64,000 nt of DNA from an uncultured Spirochaeta sp. (GTDB taxonomy: Bacteria > Spirochaetota > Spirochaetia > DSM-27196 > Alkalispirochaetaceae): assembly GCA_964496635.1 (NCBI GenBank), contig CAZCAE010000003.1:51658-115657 (forward strand). The letters are read 5' to 3'. Made by a program: the position numbers and the translations under genes. The notes under the pieces are model-generated. The model was not told where the DNA came from. It saw nothing but the letters and a program-made list of their open reading frames with translations, and did no database searches. The number at the start of each line of letters is the position of its first letter. The stretch's first letter is position 1. Shown in pieces: positions 56,863 through 64,000 of the stretch.

Positions 56863-58392
56863 CTACCGCGCGTATTCCACAACGCGCGTTTCACGAATCA
56901 TAGTAACCTTAATCCTGCCGGGGTAGCGCAGTTGTTCTTCAATATTCCGGGCAATCTTCTTGGCGATTTCCCGAGCTTCCTGATCACTGACTTTTTCATG
57001 GTTGACCATAATCCGGAGTTCCCGACCGGCCTGAATAGCGTAGGCTTTCTCTACACCCTCATATGCCTCGGCAATTGCTTCCAGGTTTTCCAGACGCTTG
57101 ATGTAGTTATCCAGCGTCTCCCGACGTGCCCCGGGACGGGACGCCGAAATGGCATCCGCAACCTGAACAATAACCGATTCCATGCAGTTGTGAGGTACGT
57201 CACCGTGATGGGCGGCAATGCAGTTAATGACCCGGGCGTCCTCGCCAAGCCGTTTCCCCAGCTCCACACCCAGTTCCACGTGATTACTGTCACCGTCGGT
57301 CTCTATACCCTTGCCGATATCATGAAGAATACCGCCACGCTTGGCGATTTCCACATCCGCGCCAACTTCAGCGGCAATTGTTCCGGCAAGAACGGCAACT
57401 TCCTTACTGTGGGCAAGGACGTTCTGCCCGTAACTGGTCCGAAATGCGAGACGTCCCAGGCCGCGGACACCTTCCGGTCGTATGTGATGAATATTCAGGT
57501 CATAGAGAACCTTCTCGCCCTCTTCATAGATCGTCTGGGTCATGTCGGCGGTAACTTTCTGAACCACCTCCTCAATCCGGGTAGGATGAATCCGTCCGTC
57601 CGTTACCAGTCGTTCCAGCGACCGCTTCGCAATTTCTTTCCGGACCGGTTCGAAACAGGAGACCACCACCGCTTCAGGAGTATCATCAATGATGATATCC
57701 ACCCCGGTGAGCGTTTCCAGAGTCCTGATGTTGCGCCCTTCCCGGCCGATAATTCTCCCCTTCATTTCATCGTTGGGCAGGCTGACCGATGAAACGGTAA
57801 CTTCAGTATTTACCTCACTGGCTACACGCTGAATGGTGGAGACGAGAATCTCCCGGGCGGTCTTGTCCGCCGTTGCCACCGCCTCCTGTTCAATCTTGTT
57901 TACCAGTCCCTGAGCTTCGTGGCGCGCCTCGTCTTCCAGCGACGAAATAATCAGTTTTCGCGCGTCTTCCTGGGTGAGCCCGGAAATTCTCTCCATCTCG
58001 TTTCGCCAGTGAATTTCCTGTTCTTCCAGGAATTTTGTCCGTTCGTCAAGCTTCCTCTCACGGGATACCAATTCCTGTTGCTCCTGTTCCAGAGCACTGG
58101 ACTTGGTTTCTAGGTTCTCTTCTTTCTGTAACAGTCGTTGTTCCAGTCGCTGCAGTTCCTTTTGCCGCTCCCGAAGTTCCCGTTCCTGTTCGTTCCGTTC
58201 GCGCTGAAGCGCATCTCTCGTTTCTAGTATCAGCTCTTTCTTGCGTGCTTCGGCATCTTTTGCCGCGTCTTTCTTCAGACGTTCCGCACGTTGCTCCGTC
58301 GAAGACAGCTGAAACCTGGCGTACAGCCAGCGAATAGTCCAACCTAGAATTACACCTGCAAGAGGAAGGGAAATCAACAGAATAAGTTGCAT
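56863..58392 (-). CDS. rny: Ribonuclease Y
   Basis: N-terminal TM, coiled coil, KH (KGRIIGREGRNIR), HD (LHDIGK), DAISASRPGAR. Confidence 0.98.
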   Translation of the reverse strand: MQLILLISLPLAGVILGWTIRWLYARFQLSSTEQRAERLKKDAAKDAEARKKELILETRDALQRERNEQERELRERQKELQRLEQRLLQKEENLETKSSALEQEQQELVSRERKLDERTKFLEEQEIHWRNEMERISGLTQEDARKLIISSLEDEARHEAQGLVNKIEQEAVATADKTAREILVSTIQRVASEVNTEVTVSSVSLPNDEMKGRIIGREGRNIRTLETLTGVDIIIDDTPEAVVVSCFEPVRKEIAKRSLERLVTDGRIHPTRIEEVVQKVTADMTQTIYEEGEKVLYDLNIHHIRPEGVRGLGRLAFRTSYGQNVLAHSKEVAVLAGTIAAEVGADVEIAKRGGILHDIGKGIETDGDSNHVELGVELGKRLGEDARVINCIAAHHGDVPHNCMESVIVQVADAISASRPGARRETLDNYIKRLENLEAIAEAYEGVEKAYAIQAGRELRIMVNHEKVSDQEAREIAKKIARNIEEQLRYPGRIKVTMIRETRVVEYAR

Positions 58393-58424
58393 AGACCTTC
58401 CTCCACCAATGGTTCTAAGATTTT

Positions 58425-58454
58425 AGCCTATAGTGCTTTACAAAGCCATGTCAA
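58425..58454 (-). promoter_or_regulatory. sigma70 promoter for rny-ymdB-tlyA
   Basis: TTGACA-N18-TAGGCT; GGAGG RBS before the rny ATG. Confidence 0.55.
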
Positions 58455-59101
58455 GTTTCAAGCCAATCCGGGTCGTCATCATATCCGACAATCCGGCGAT
58501 CGAGTCGTTCGGCCCGTCGTCGAAGACGAAGAGTCCGCTTCAAACCGCGCTGCAGGAGAAGAAGCATGTCCTGGGTCATGGAATCTACGTCCGGATCATC
58601 CAGATTGGCAATTACTGCATCCAGAAGAGTGAGGACCAATCGATGGGCGTTGTTGTATATTCCCGGACGAAATACGTTTCGCCGGGACCCCTCCCGGATG
58701 ACCTCATCCAGAATATCTTCAATTCGTTTTCTCAAAATACCTACTCCCCCGGCTCCCACATCTATACCGGGATAGAGGAAGCGTTCGTCCCGTGAAAGAA
58801 CTCCCCGCAGAATCGGGTAACGACGTATTCCGAGTATTGTGAAACGATAGACCGCTTTCAGTTTGTTCAACGGGGAATGCAGGCGCCCGACCATCAGTTC
58901 AGCTTTTCGGATACCCTCCCGTTGGATCAGACGAAGAATATCTTCATAAAAACCTTCCTTGCCGGGAAAATGTTTATAAAATGTACCGACACTTAGTCCG
59001 CAATGTCGAACGATATCTTCTACCGAGACATCTCTGTAACCGTATCGTGAAAAAAGCTCCATGCCGGATCGGATGATCAGATTTCGCCTGTTGGCTTTCA
59101 T
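58451..59101 (-). CDS. TetR/AcrR family transcriptional regulator
   Basis: IIRSGMELFSRYGYRDVSVEDIVRHCGLSVGTFYKHFPGKE; ATG at 59101. Confidence 0.92.
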   Translation of the reverse strand: MKANRRNLIIRSGMELFSRYGYRDVSVEDIVRHCGLSVGTFYKHFPGKEGFYEDILRLIQREGIRKAELMVGRLHSPLNKLKAVYRFTILGIRRYPILRGVLSRDERFLYPGIDVGAGGVGILRKRIEDILDEVIREGSRRNVFRPGIYNNAHRLVLTLLDAVIANLDDPDVDSMTQDMLLLLQRGLKRTLRLRRRAERLDRRIVGYDDDPDWLET

Positions 59102-59108
59102 CGCAGAA

Positions 59109-59118
59109 TAGTATACTA
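59109..59118. promoter_or_regulatory. Perfect palindrome TAGTATACTA overlapping the predicted tetR -10 (TATACT)
   Basis: Seen directly; a TTTCGC-N17-TATACT promoter on the minus strand ends 8 nt before the tetR ATG. Confidence 0.45.
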
Positions 59119-59156
59119 CAACGTATCCGGGGGCGAAAGCTAATCCGACAAGCAAA

Positions 59157-59191
59157 TGAAGATTCTCTTCAGATATTCACTCTGCTATTAT
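59157..59191 (+). promoter_or_regulatory. Candidate operator TGAAGA-ttc-TCTTCA over the -35 of the cysteate synthase operon promoter
   Basis: Palindrome at 59157-59171; extended -10 TGcTATTAT at 59183-59191, 17 nt after TTCTCT. Confidence 0.45.
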
Positions 59192-59295
59192 ATCTTATTT
59201 TTCCATTAAAGTTACACATACATTCTTCTTGAAAGGGTTGGAGGACGATCACGACCAGAGATCACAATCACAGAAGCGGTGTCGGGAACACAACA

Positions 59296-60801
59296 TTGAC
59301 TATCTCCGGTTCGACCGGTAAGACAGCAGCTATGGATGGCGCCTCCGGCAACGTGTCGCAACAACACTATGACCTTTTCCCGTTAGGACGGCCGGATATC
59401 CTGCCGAATATCCTGCAGGATATCCGGCACGTCGAAACGGATATCTTTCCTATGGAAGTGCCCGCTGCCGGTGAACGCCCCGTATTTCTGCGGACACGCT
59501 ACCGACAGACCCGATTTTGTCCGGACTCCCTCCGTACCGATATATTTCGTTACGCTTCATGGTTGCCCGTTTCGCGTATCCTTGACGGAGGGGGTGGTCC
59601 CGTAACCTGGCAGTCTGAAGGCTACGGCCCCCATCTGGGTCTGAAGAAACTCTATATTACCTTCAGTGGATGGTGGCCCCGTCGAGAAGCACGTATACCC
59701 ACCGGCACATTCAAGGAAAATGAAGCCTACGCAGTCTATGGCCGCATGGGCGACGCGGCATACCGACACACACTGGTTGTGGCATCAGCCGGCAATACCG
59801 CCCGCGCCTTTCTCCGGGTCGCAACGGAGCATAATTTTCCTCTGGTCATCGTCGTCCCCGAAGACAACCTGCCGGATCTGTGGACAGTCGGGCTCCGAGG
59901 CCCATCCACCACCGTTGTCGCAGCAGGAAACGGCGCAGACTACAGTGACGCCATTGCACTTTCCGGACTTCTTGCGGCGGCGCCTGGTTTTCTGGCAGAG
60001 GGCGGTGCAAAGAACGTCGCCCGACGGGACGGGATGGGCACCACCTTCCTTTCGGCCGCCGAAACGATGGGACGCATTCCGGACCACTATTTTCAGGCCG
60101 TCGGAAGCGGAACAGGCGCCATTGCCGCATGGGAGGCGAATCTCCGTCTTCTGGATGCGGGATATCCTGGAACTCTTGAGAGCGGCCCCGGAACCCCACG
60201 CCAACCGCCCACCCGGCCGGCCCGGTCCGACCACGGCGCGGCCCGCCATACCGTTGGACCCGCTTTCGGCCTCGCCAGGCTCCACCTTGCCCAAAACGCT
60301 CCCTTCACCCTCCTTGTGGACACCTGGAACGCCCGCAGCGCCACCCTGCTGCCACTTGATCCAGAGACGGCCAAAAATCAGATAGACAACATCCATGCAA
60401 AGGTTCTGGCCAACCGCCACGCCCCCTGGTCCCCAACCGGGGGGCTTTTTGACGCCCTCACAGCGACCGGCGGGGTCATGTACGCCCCGGACAACACTGC
60501 GGCATCCAGGGCGGGCCGGACCTTTCAGTCCAAAGAAGGCTCGGACATATCCCCCGCCGCCGCCGTCGCATGCGCCGCTCTGGAAGAAGCTGTCGCAACG
60601 GGGACAGTCCAGCCCGAAGACTACATAAGCCTCAACATAACCGGCGGCGGCTACGCATCAGCCCGAAGAGAACTGGACACGCACCCTCTCACTGCTGATA
60701 TCGTTGTCGACCCACAACGTCAAACCACCCGGTCAATCGCTCGAGCGGTCATGAATTTCCGAAATATGCGTACAAGGAGACCAGAGTATGTTACTAGATG
60801 A
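59296..60801 (+). CDS. Cysteate synthase (threonine synthase-like PLP enzyme; CapA-type). Start may be the ATG at 59332
   Basis: Family-specific motifs LYITFSGWWP, GTFKENEA (PLP Lys), VASAGNTARAF, DYSDAI, EGGAKNVARRDGMGT, PDHYFQAVGSGTG, VLANR..GGLFDAL, LNITGGG match methanosarcinal/Bacteroidota cysteate synthases as I recall them. Confidence 0.92.
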   Translation: MTISGSTGKTAAMDGASGNVSQQHYDLFPLGRPDILPNILQDIRHVETDIFPMEVPAAGERPVFLRTRYRQTRFCPDSLRTDIFRYASWLPVSRILDGGGGPVTWQSEGYGPHLGLKKLYITFSGWWPRREARIPTGTFKENEAYAVYGRMGDAAYRHTLVVASAGNTARAFLRVATEHNFPLVIVVPEDNLPDLWTVGLRGPSTTVVAAGNGADYSDAIALSGLLAAAPGFLAEGGAKNVARRDGMGTTFLSAAETMGRIPDHYFQAVGSGTGAIAAWEANLRLLDAGYPGTLESGPGTPRQPPTRPARSDHGAARHTVGPAFGLARLHLAQNAPFTLLVDTWNARSATLLPLDPETAKNQIDNIHAKVLANRHAPWSPTGGLFDALTATGGVMYAPDNTAASRAGRTFQSKEGSDISPAAAVACAALEEAVATGTVQPEDYISLNITGGGYASARRELDTHPLTADIVVDPQRQTTRSIARAVMNFRNMRTRRPEYVTR

Positions 60802-62116
60802 AAAGACAGAACAGGAAAGCGCCGCCAAGGCAGAAGGCCATACCGACCTCTTTGCAAAATGCCACACCGACGGCGGCTATTTCGGCAAGATGCGCGCCAT
60901 AGGAGACGACGAATACACCCGGCCCGTTCTGCCGCCCAACCCGGCCCGGCACATGGTGTTCAAGGGAAAAGAACACATCATGTGGTCGGTCAACAACTAT
61001 CTCGGCCTGGCAAACCACCCGGAAGTTCTTGATGTTGCGAGGAAAACAATAGATGACTTCGGTGTCAGCTCTCCTATGGGCTCCCGCATGATGAGCGGCA
61101 ACACCGAGTACCACCTCGCCTTCGAACGCGAGCTGGCGGAACACGCCGAAAAGGAAGCTGCTTTCCTCTTCAACTACGGCTACATGGGCGTCATCGGAAC
61201 GATCCAGTCGCTGGTGGGCAAGGAAGACGTCATCGTCATGGACAAGCTGGACCATGCATGCATCGTCGACGGTGCCTTCCAGGCCCAGGCGATGAACGGA
61301 GCCCAGCTGAGAGTCTTCAAGCACAACAACATGGAAAACCTGGAGCAGGTGCTGAAACGGGTAAACCGCGACCGCAAAGGGGGCGTCATGATCGTCACCG
61401 AAGGAGTCTACGGCATGACCGGTGACCTGGCCCCCCTGAAGGATATCGCCTCACTTGCAAGGAAGTACGACGCCCGGATATTTATTGACGACGCTCACGG
61501 CTGGGGAACCATGGGTCCCGCCGGAAAAGGTACCGCCGCCCACTTCGGCGTCCAGGATGAGATCGACATCTACTTCGGGACATTTGCCAAGAGCTTTGCC
61601 TCCATCGGCGGCTTTTCCGCCTCCGACAAGGCCGTCACAGACTGGATCGCCTATAACGCCAGGACCCAGGTCTTCGCCAAGAGCCTGCCTATGGTCTACG
61701 TACAGACCCTCCGAAAGACATTCGACCTCGTCAAGGCCGCCGACGACCGCCGCGCCAGGATGTGGGCCCGCAGCAACGCGCTGAAAAGCGGTCTGAAAGA
61801 ACTCGGATTTTACGTGGGCCCCGGCGAATCCATGATCTGTTCCGTCTTTGTCCCCCTGGGAGAGGAATCCATAGAACGGATGGGCGCCGCCACCTCCGGC
61901 TTCCTCCGGCAGAACGGCGTCTTCGTCACCGCCATCGCCTATCCCGTCATCCCCCTCGGCCTGCTCATGTTCCGCATGATCCCCACGGCCATGCACGAAG
62001 AGGAGGACGTGGTAGAGACGCTGCGGGTCTTCAAAGACATGCGGGATAACCTCGGCCTTCGCCTCTCCATGACTGAAGACGAAGACAGGATGATCCGTAA
62101 AGTCTACGGCATCTGA
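60788..62116 (+). CDS. Cysteate-C-fatty acyltransferase (CapB/SulA/CFAT-type alpha-oxoamine synthase)
   Basis: AAGGAG RBS and 14-nt overlap with cysteate synthase. WSVNNYLGLANHPEV, PMGSRMMSGNT, HACIVDG, DDAHG, GTFAKS (PLP Lys), QVFAKSLP, YPVIPLG..RMIPTA. Confidence 0.85.
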   Translation: MLLDEKTEQESAAKAEGHTDLFAKCHTDGGYFGKMRAIGDDEYTRPVLPPNPARHMVFKGKEHIMWSVNNYLGLANHPEVLDVARKTIDDFGVSSPMGSRMMSGNTEYHLAFERELAEHAEKEAAFLFNYGYMGVIGTIQSLVGKEDVIVMDKLDHACIVDGAFQAQAMNGAQLRVFKHNNMENLEQVLKRVNRDRKGGVMIVTEGVYGMTGDLAPLKDIASLARKYDARIFIDDAHGWGTMGPAGKGTAAHFGVQDEIDIYFGTFAKSFASIGGFSASDKAVTDWIAYNARTQVFAKSLPMVYVQTLRKTFDLVKAADDRRARMWARSNALKSGLKELGFYVGPGESMICSVFVPLGEESIERMGAATSGFLRQNGVFVTAIAYPVIPLGLLMFRMIPTAMHEEEDVVETLRVFKDMRDNLGLRLSMTEDEDRMIRKVYGI

Positions 62117-62142
62117 AACGACATCTGATTTTTATATCTGTC

Positions 62143-62252
62143 TTCCGGTGGACCGACCCTGCGGGCGCGGCCACCGGGAACTGACGTTCCGCAAGGTCCC
62201 CTTCCTCATCGAAGGTGGGACCACTCTGCTCGACGGGCTATGTTCCCGTCGA
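62143..62252. terminator. Three consecutive GC-rich hairpins between convergent genes (likely bidirectional terminator/structured 3' UTR)
   Basis: TTCCGGTGG..CCACCGGGAA (62143-62180), GGTCCC-CTTC..GAAG-GGGACC (62195-62222), TCGACGGG..CCCGTCGA (62230-62252). Confidence 0.5.
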
Positions 62253-62270
62253 CCGATAATAACCGGGATG

Positions 62271-63329
62271 TTACTTAATTCGTCCTAAACCCATAGCCCG
62301 TATGATCCACCGCGGAAGAGGTTTTTCCATACCCCGTTTTTTCAGGTCCAGGTACCAGTTCACCTTCTTCATGACTGGAATTTTATACGTCTCGACAAAT
62401 TCAATAAGCGTGCCGTCAGGGTCTTCAATATAGGCAAACCGTCCTGCCGCTTCACCCATATCGAAACGGGATCCCGAATCCACCGTAAAGGGGTGACCCG
62501 CCGCCTCACACCGCATTTTGAGAATGTCCATACCGATAACGTCGAAGCAGAGATGAATAAACCCCAGATCACCCCAGAATCGATCATGAAAAATCCGCTT
62601 TCCCTTGTGATTGACGACTTCAACCAGTTCCAGCTGCGTCTGCCCGAAGAGACGACTGAAGGCGCCGCTATGGCCGGCGGAACGGGTTAGCAGCACCCGT
62701 CGTAACCGACGATCCCCCCCGGGAAAACCGGCAAGGTCTGCGAAGAGATCCTGTTCGTCGTAGATCTTGGTATCATATCCCAGGACAGTCGCGTAAAAAT
62801 CCAGAGCGGCCGCCATATCGGAAACGCCTATCATCACCCCGGAGACCCCACCGGTTTGTCGCCGGGGACTGGAAAACCAGTCGTCACTTTCCACAAGGTG
62901 AAAGAAGTTACCCCATGGATCCCGGACAGCCACCCGCGCCTTACCATCGGGGTCCTCCTGAACCGCTCCAAGGACATCCGCTCCCTGAGACTGAAGGCGC
63001 TGGTAGGCTTGATGGACTCCTTTGGTTTTGATGCGTCCCACCAGCAGCCCGTAGTCACCAATCTCTACCGGTTCCGCCGGTGCCTTGGGAGGCCTGCTTG
63101 TATACTGCCATATCTCAAAACCACCACCACCGGCGAGATTCACCGCAAGCATCGCATCTCGGCTATGCACCTGCCCCCCTGTGTAGGGTGTCATAAATGG
63201 TGCCTCCGCAGCTTCACGAAAGACAGGGACATCCACGTTAAAAGTCTTCCGGTACCAATCAAATGCCGCGTTGGTGTCGGGAATGCCAATCCCCAGTTGT
63301 TGAATACCACTGAACAAGACGTTATTCAT
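62271..63329 (-). CDS. Tandem VOC/glyoxalase-fold protein
   Basis: Two VOC repeats: GIQQLGIG..FEIWQY, GVMIGVSD..LELVE..HLCFDV..IEDPDGTLIEFVE. Confidence 0.85.
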   Translation of the reverse strand: MNNVLFSGIQQLGIGIPDTNAAFDWYRKTFNVDVPVFREAAEAPFMTPYTGGQVHSRDAMLAVNLAGGGGFEIWQYTSRPPKAPAEPVEIGDYGLLVGRIKTKGVHQAYQRLQSQGADVLGAVQEDPDGKARVAVRDPWGNFFHLVESDDWFSSPRRQTGGVSGVMIGVSDMAAALDFYATVLGYDTKIYDEQDLFADLAGFPGGDRRLRRVLLTRSAGHSGAFSRLFGQTQLELVEVVNHKGKRIFHDRFWGDLGFIHLCFDVIGMDILKMRCEAAGHPFTVDSGSRFDMGEAAGRFAYIEDPDGTLIEFVETYKIPVMKKVNWYLDLKKRGMEKPLPRWIIRAMGLGRIK

Positions 63330-63380
63330 GGAAAGAGCGCTCCTTTTATCAAGTTATTATATCAAAAGGTGTCAAAATGG

Positions 63381-64000
63381 TCACGGGAGAGACAAAAAAA
63401 GGACTCCCCACTGAATCGCCACAAAAAAGAGCAGAACTATACGCCCTGTCGTTGAAGTTTCCGCAGCCGTGGCTTTCCTGCGCTGTATATCGGAAACAGA
63501 CGCATCCATATTTCTCAGTGACTCGTACACCCCAAGCAACAGGTCGTCGGCACTATGAAGCGGTGCCGCGAACCGAAGTTCTTCCCGACGCTCCATGATC
63601 TGCTCAAAAGACCAGAAAAGCTTTCCGGCCACCGTTCCAATCCGACCGGGAATTTTCAGATCCGCTCGAACGGAGATTAGAGAGAGAAATACCATACCCA
63701 CAACGGTGAAAGCTTTGTATAAACCGCTTCTCAGGGCGCCCGTCGTTACCGGTAATCCCATAAACTCAAAAAGAACCGCCCCTGTGGGAACGAGAAGATG
63801 AAAGAATGTAATACCTAGAGATATTGTGATGAAATAGAGCCATAACAGACGCTTCCCCGCCAACGTGGTCAGCCATCCAAAGAGAACAACCTGAAACACT
63901 CGAATTACCAGACTATCCTGCAGAAGAAAGGCCGGTAACGCTGCCATACCCGATAGAAACAATCCGGCAGCGGAAAGATGAGCGGTGATCCATGGGTGTT
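63381..64000 (-). CDS. Membrane protein, EcfT-like (5' end probably beyond the window)
   Basis: Multi-TM; LVPTGAVLF..VTTGALRSG resembles ECF T components; the reading frame stays open to the window edge. Confidence 0.55.
   Translation of the reverse strand, partial: HPWITAHLSAAGLFLSGMAALPAFLLQDSLVIRVFQVVLFGWLTTLAGKRLLWLYFITISLGITFFHLLVPTGAVLFEFMGLPVTTGALRSGLYKAFTVVGMVFLSLISVRADLKIPGRIGTVAGKLFWSFEQIMERREELRFAAPLHSADDLLLGVYESLRNMDASVSDIQRRKATAAETSTTGRIVLLFFVAIQWGVLFLSLP

Follow-up and report, generated by a model that had tools for sequence, protein, structure and literature searches.

The gene at positions 60788..62116 (+) of the window, by which we mean the whole 64,000-nucleotide stretch of DNA analysed here (from an uncultured Spirochaeta sp.), encodes an alpha-oxoamine synthase (AOS) of 442 amino acids. 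We consider it highly likely that this protein is a cysteate-C-fatty acyltransferase (CFAT) of the SulA/CapB type, coupled to a cysteate synthase, and that its Lys298 is a good marker of lineage and probably not what determines specificity. Its residues are equivalent to those of solved CFATs and are conserved, it is a member of the CFAT clade, and it is linked to a cysteate synthase gene. The enzyme is very probably cysteate-specific. Both the residue and its role have already been published; what the window adds to this known family is a new member from a spirochaete.

The identification draws on PDB matches, on a phylogenetic tree and on fold. The best PDB sequence matches of the window protein were the CFAT of Capnocytophaga ochracea (CoCFAT, 28EH; E 6e-108 over residues 20-422) and SulA (7U7H; 1e-101), with SPT (1e-67), KBL and BioF well behind. 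NCBIfam models placed it in the BioF/KBL/SPT/ALAS superfamily, below every equivalog cut-off. The SPT models NF047600, NF047599 and NF047603 scored 280, 274 and 236 against cut-offs of 640, 500 and 670, and the BioF/KBL models TIGR00858 and NF005394 scored 298.7 and 290 against 426 and 460. The match to Pfam Aminotran_1_2 (8.7e-40), the alignment of Lys268 and the AOS enzymes among the top fold matches all place the protein on the fold-type I AOS scaffold with a PLP Schiff-base lysine. An AF2 model built from a 32-sequence alignment (mean pLDDT 90.2) had SulA 7U7H as its best PDB fold match (TM 0.85, rmsd 2.1 A), although a monomer model cannot show a contact made across subunits. SPT, KBL and BioF identities were rejected on the model cut-offs, the tree and the existence of a separate KBL paralogue: the only AOS paralogue of the genome is a KBL-like gene (C18:19861-21078) that lies next to a threonine-dehydrogenase-like gene and reads LFSNTLAP where the window protein has its lysine motif. 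At its C-terminal end the window protein carries an extension of about 20 amino acids (62054-62113, residues ~423-442: ..LSMTEDEDRMIRKVYGI), which CoCFAT and SulA lack and which is kept among spirochaete homologues (consensus EDxxKIRKVYG), with a predicted helix at residues 430-439.

The lysine in question lies in the motif ARTQVFAKSLP (61658..61690, + strand, with A291 from 61658 and P301 to 61690), in the sequence ...YNARTQVFAKSLPMVYV..., and the PLP-lysine region, ...IDIYFGTFAKSFASIGG..., is found 30 residues earlier. The window protein thus has two FAKS tetrapeptides 30 residues apart (K268 and K298), and the second of these does stand beside the PLP-binding GTFAKS as the original prediction described, its range of 61660-61700 covering the motif. 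An origin of the second FAKS by internal duplication was also considered but is rejected, as the two tetrapeptides belong to different structural elements and the second in SulA is YAKS. In HMMER alignments without gaps, K268 and K298 correspond to K250 and K280 of CoCFAT and to K251 and K281 of SulA (chain numbering +20), and the spacing between the PLP lysine and the trans lysine is 30 residues in all three of these proteins. The AAG codon of Lys298 (61679..61681, +) therefore specifies the counterpart of CoCFAT Lys280' and SulA Lys281', an active-site lysine contributed by the other protomer; the ungapped alignment agrees with the equivalence to the SulA lysine that was originally proposed, and it puts Lys298 at the active site rather than away from the substrate. 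Lys268, in GTFAKS, is encoded at 61589..61591 (+) and is the PLP Schiff-base lysine. In the same kind of alignment the Sphingobacterium SPT (SmSPT) has Ala at the Lys298 position (FSASM).

Other active-site residues of CFATs are kept as well. Asn69 (60992..60994, +), equivalent to CoCFAT Asn52 in the ungapped HMMER alignment, is invariant in both of our alignments (A1 and A2), as is Arg396 (61973..61975, +), equivalent to SulA Arg376, which is the carboxylate-binding arginine of the AOS family (PMC9304779). Tyr130-Gly131-Tyr132 (61175..61183, +) matches CoCFAT Phe113-Gly114-Tyr115, a CFAT-specific pocket element, and His156-Ala157-Cys158 (61253..61261, +) matches CoCFAT His139 and Cys141, the cysteine being of the CFAT type. 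Overall, the signature retained comprises N69, Y130-G131-Y132, H156-A157-C158, E205, F263, A267, K268, F296, K298 and R396. In the set of pocket positions that differ from SPT (YGY, HAC, E205, F263, A267, G98-S99 and V295), seven of nine are as in CoCFAT and the other two are conservative changes, Ala82 to Ser99 and Met277 to Val295. SPT-like sequences have TGF or TGY at the YGY position, and most other AOS have HAS at the HAC position. The lysine together with the YGY/HAC/FAK signature allows the window gene to be named a cysteate acyltransferase, whereas its homologues are annotated in their sources as 'glycine C-acetyltransferase' or 'aminotransferase class I/II'.

Conservation of the lysine is strict among close relatives. 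All 120 homologues of 60-100% identity have both K298 and K268, and K298 was also found in all 80 of the best loci in a species-representative genome collection. Among 150 representatives of the 50%-identity clusters found with the window protein, the residue at the Lys298 column is Ala in 51, Thr in 46, Lys in 16, Ser in 7 and Asn in 5. Typical strings in the other AOS are IFSASLPP and IYSTALPP, so that the contrast originally drawn with IFSASLPP/STALPP-type enzymes is borne out. We inferred a maximum-likelihood tree by 'quick' search from 102 rows, which comprised the window protein, the sequences of three PDB entries, representatives and spirochaete loci, the KBL paralogue serving as outgroup. 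CoCFAT and AfSulA join the window protein in one 21-row clade (SH-aLRT 97), and SmSPT falls in a separate clade of 30 rows. All 21 Lys-bearing rows lie inside a single 26-row CFAT-related clade (SH-aLRT 99), and the residue occurs in none of the 76 rows outside it. Because the lysine is invariant in the homologues and best loci and absent outside the CFAT-related clade, it is not there by chance.

Several branches of this tree deserve comment in their own right. His, Arg and Glu variants at the Lys298 column occur within the core CFAT clade, and the cluster P0132 (11 members, on contigs of up to 716 kb), a paralogue inside the Bacteroidota-type CFAT clade, combines Glu at this column with Asn for the His139 equivalent and Glu for the Asn52 equivalent; this paralogue could be a pseudo-enzyme or serve some new function. 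Three proteins of 1049-1127 aa (P0122, P0123 and P0126) are fusions of a fatty-acyl-AMP ligase, an ACP and a Lys-type AOS. The spirochaete CFAT clade has P0122 as its sister, at 52% identity; one member of the P0122 cluster is named Rhodothermaceae, and the fusions fit a self-loading sulfonolipid synthase in Rhodothermota. Many spirochaete genomes without cysteate synthase have an Ala-type AOS (FSASMPP, GTFSKSF, ~35% identity to the window protein); those at loci L028-L033 (genomes G020, G021, G004, G005, G072 and G047) group with the Sphingobacterium SPT in the tree and are therefore candidate SPTs.

The genomic setting supplies what a CFAT would need. Directly upstream, at 59296..60801 (+), is a gene for a protein of 501 aa that matches Pfam PALP and the equivalog-level model TIGR03844 cysteate_syn at 409-409.6 bits against a cut-off of 324.9; this cysteate synthase would make the cysteate on which the CFAT acts. 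The last 14 nt of the cysteate synthase gene, TGA stop included, are also the first 14 nt of the CFAT gene (60788-60801), and an AAGGAG Shine-Dalgarno sequence, read from the sequence at 60774..60779 (+), lies within the 3' end of the cysteate synthase gene and 8 nt 5' of the CFAT ATG. From the overlap and the spacing of this site we conclude that the two genes are translationally coupled. The cysteate synthase is longer than the 398-position model: it has an N-terminal extension of ~60 aa, a C-terminal tail of ~30 aa and, at residues ~293-325, a Pro/Arg/Gly-rich insert of ~33 aa that breaks the match to TIGR03844 into two parts. Over 56863-63962, synteny is kept between the window and a Spirochaetia MAG (L036), the common order being RNase Y (-), cysteate synthase and CFAT (+), a two-domain VOC/glyoxalase-family protein of 352 aa (-) and a small membrane protein (-); relative to L036, the window also has a divergent TetR gene (58451-59155), which separates RNase Y from the operon.

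The closest named relatives of the window CFAT are from Spirochaetota MAGs, and the association with cysteate synthase extends across that phylum. We sampled 301 genomes of Spirochaetota and found a strong Lys-type homologue, at 48-56% identity, in 24; wherever the homologue covers the motif (23/23), K298 is kept and the motif reads FAKSLP. Cysteate synthase was above cut-off in 25 of the 301 genomes, including every one of the 24 with a Lys-type AOS; the lone genome that has it without a Lys-type AOS is 89% complete and in 590 contigs. No cysteate synthase was found in the sampled Spirochaetota genomes whose best AOS is Ala-type, SPT-like or KBL-like. The two genes are adjacent in the subclade of the window and unlinked in the largest family, f16, and the association between Lys-type AOS and cysteate synthase is therefore independent of adjacency. 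Since the genomes are related and Lys-type enzymes form a single clade, this co-occurrence is an association at the level of the clade and is silent on a causal role of the residue. The 80 best loci of the species-representative collection comprise 7 from Spirochaetota, ~70 from Bacteroidota and a few others, and within these 80 a cysteate synthase is directly upstream in five spirochaete loci only, L035 and L036 among them.

Three Lys-type CFAT homologues are in MAG bins of other groups, L041 (Legionellaceae UBA2794, with the divergent motif IYSKVHPL), L055 (Chlorobiota) and L110 (Limnohabitans), and could reflect horizontal transfer or binning errors. In a Spirochaetaceae MAG (L035:1722-7284), cysD (PAPS_reduct) and cysN/C (GTPase and APS kinase) immediately precede the genes for cysteate synthase and CFAT, all in one orientation, in what looks like a sulfate-to-sulfonolipid operon.

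Is the lysine, then, sufficient to recognize a cysteate enzyme? The original prediction held that this single residue supports cysteate use independently of gene context, and that is too strong. On an outer branch of the 26-row clade (P0129, P0131 and P0137) the lysine is kept while other positions diverge. A search with P0129 gave 120 relatives, most of them under the label Planctomycetota and one under Lentisphaeria. These keep F-T-K-(A/S) and have xGA for (F/Y)GY, the Tyr of which is essential in CoCFAT, HAS or HAT for HAC, Asp for Glu205 and FSK for FAK. At two distinct genomic places of this lineage, to which L114-L117 belong, no cysteate synthase was found within 8 kb, and the neighbours are a GH3-type adenylating enzyme and a GNAT-like protein. 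Because the lineage keeps the lysine without the other CFAT pocket residues, the lysine alone is insufficient evidence; it is convincing with the rest of the signature and a supply of cysteate, as in the window.

A broader joint reading of these observations, which we regard as rather unlikely though worth stating, is that the lysine is older than the use of cysteate and marks a wider clade of long-chain-base synthases, and that free-living spirochaetes truly make capnine-type sulfonolipids. If this were so, the clade would span Bacteroidota, Rhodothermota, Spirochaetota, Planctomycetota and Lentisphaerota, the FTK(A/S) lineage of Planctomycetota or the His/Arg/Glu variants would condense a different polar amino acid, and the sulfonolipids of spirochaetes would be a lipid class never reported from the phylum. 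A literature search for sulfonolipids in spirochaetes returned no report, and a separate one for published phylogenetic distributions gave only statements on human-microbiome surveys across 21 phyla.

The reading we prefer, that Lys298 is a marker of lineage in a CFAT, raises the question of what the residue does in the enzyme. According to Radka et al. [quoted passage not shown] A mechanism along the lines originally predicted, in which the side-chain amine of Lys298 contacts and neutralises the sulfonate of cysteate and so sets cysteate specificity, is in our view quite improbable. In its favour, the sulfonate came to lie between Lys251 and Lys281' on docking into SulA, the authors considered a neutralising contribution of Lys281 possible in another conformation (PMC9304779), and in the sets we examined Lys versus Ala tracks CFAT versus SPT perfectly. 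However, the sulfonate contact in SulA was seen in docking only, and the K281A mutant, ~1000-fold less active, still bound cysteate and formed the aldimine normally; the authors concluded that the side chain of Lys281 serves to close off the active site and gives no help in binding cysteate, and they left selectivity open (PMC9304779). The structure of CoCFAT solved with the PLP-cysteate external aldimine (Pang et al., 2026; PMC13692747) also speaks against such a contact: the sulfonate is hydrogen-bonded by Asn52, by His139, which also stacks on PLP, and by Lys250, and not by Lys280. Lys280' is within 4 A of the adduct and its backbone amide binds the PLP phosphate; Lys280Ala left <10% activity and Tyr115Ala <0.5% (PMC13692747). 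In addition, no set of SPT-like substitutions in CoCFAT, first-shell swaps among them, ever gave serine activity, and the authors attributed cysteate use to a coordinated environment rather than to a single recognition element (PMC13692747). The Planctomycetota lineage, with the lysine and without the rest of the pocket, weighs on the same side.

The K-to-A mutants of both homologues thus lose activity instead of keeping it, and the claim that the lysine marks the window enzyme as cysteate-specific survives in part: the residue is a family discriminator in an enzyme that is very probably cysteate-specific, but it probably does not select the substrate. The most fitting view of Lys298 is that it marks descent and is important for catalysis as well. 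For the window protein, both the activity and the structural part played by Lys298 are inferred from these homologues. The enzyme would catalyse the first committed step of sulfonolipid synthesis, a PLP-dependent condensation of cysteate with a fatty acyl thioester that yields 3-ketocapnine. By homology to the two solved enzymes, the backbone amide of Lys298 would hydrogen-bond the PLP phosphate in the site of the partner subunit, and its aliphatic side chain would form a wall of the pocket beside the cysteate-PLP aldimine and seal the site from solvent. On the same grounds the residue would be needed for the condensation chemistry and not for cysteate binding, and the sulfonate would probably be held by Asn69, His156 and the freed PLP lysine, Lys268.

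That the enzyme is not cysteate-specific at all, being an SPT, KBL or BioF paralogue or a user of another acidic amino acid such as phosphoserine or cysteine sulfinate in which the lysine reflects descent only, might be argued from the presence of the lysine in the Planctomycetota lineage and from the His, Arg and Glu variants inside the CFAT-related clade, but is extremely improbable given that the BioF, KBL, SPT and ALAS models all score under their cut-offs, that the genome has a separate KBL beside a threonine-dehydrogenase-like gene, that there is translational coupling with a cysteate synthase gene matched at equivalog level, that such a synthase is present in all 24 spirochaete genomes with a Lys-type AOS, and that six characterised members of the clade all prefer cysteate.

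Sulfonolipids are bioactive, with effects on TLR4 signalling and the induction of rosettes in choanoflagellates, and are usually credited to Bacteroidota. Our survey adds evidence that the first two steps of their synthesis are encoded in about 8% of the sampled Spirochaetota genomes, from at least seven families, and the implication at the level of the phylum, that spirochaetes may have sulfonolipids, is mildly interesting. A useful correction also follows, namely that the lysine marks a lineage and is needed for catalysis but probably does not bind the sulfonate.

Comparison with the known systems summarizes where the window protein stands. The bacterial SPT of Sphingobacterium multivorum (3A2B) has the same fold-type I AOS scaffold and the same catalytic Asn, His, PLP lysine and Arg, but differs from the window protein in having Ala (FSASM) for Lys298, FSK for FAK, HAS for HAC and TGF for YGY. 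SPTs form a separate clade at ~31-35% identity, and the spirochaete SPT-like genes are in genomes without cysteate synthase. SulA, the cysteate acyl-ACP transferase of Alistipes finegoldii (7U7H; PMC9304779), uses acyl-ACP as its acyl donor; its Lys251, Lys281, Asn53, His140 and Arg376 are all kept in the window protein, and its motif reads LYAKSLP where that of the window protein reads VFAKSLP. The window CFAT is from a spirochaete and in an operon with cysteate synthase, whereas no cysteate synthase was found within 6 kb of the gene at the Bacteroidota loci examined. The best solved match is CapB/CoCFAT of Capnocytophaga ochracea (PDB 28EH and 28FA; PMC13692747). Relative to this enzyme the window protein is ~45% identical, has about 17 additional amino acids at the N-terminus and about 20 at the C-terminus, and has Tyr130 for Phe113, Ser99 for Ala82 and Val295 for Met277, but the two have in common Asn52, His139, Cys141, Glu187, Phe245, Ala249, Gly114-Tyr115, Phe278 and Lys280 (CoCFAT numbering).
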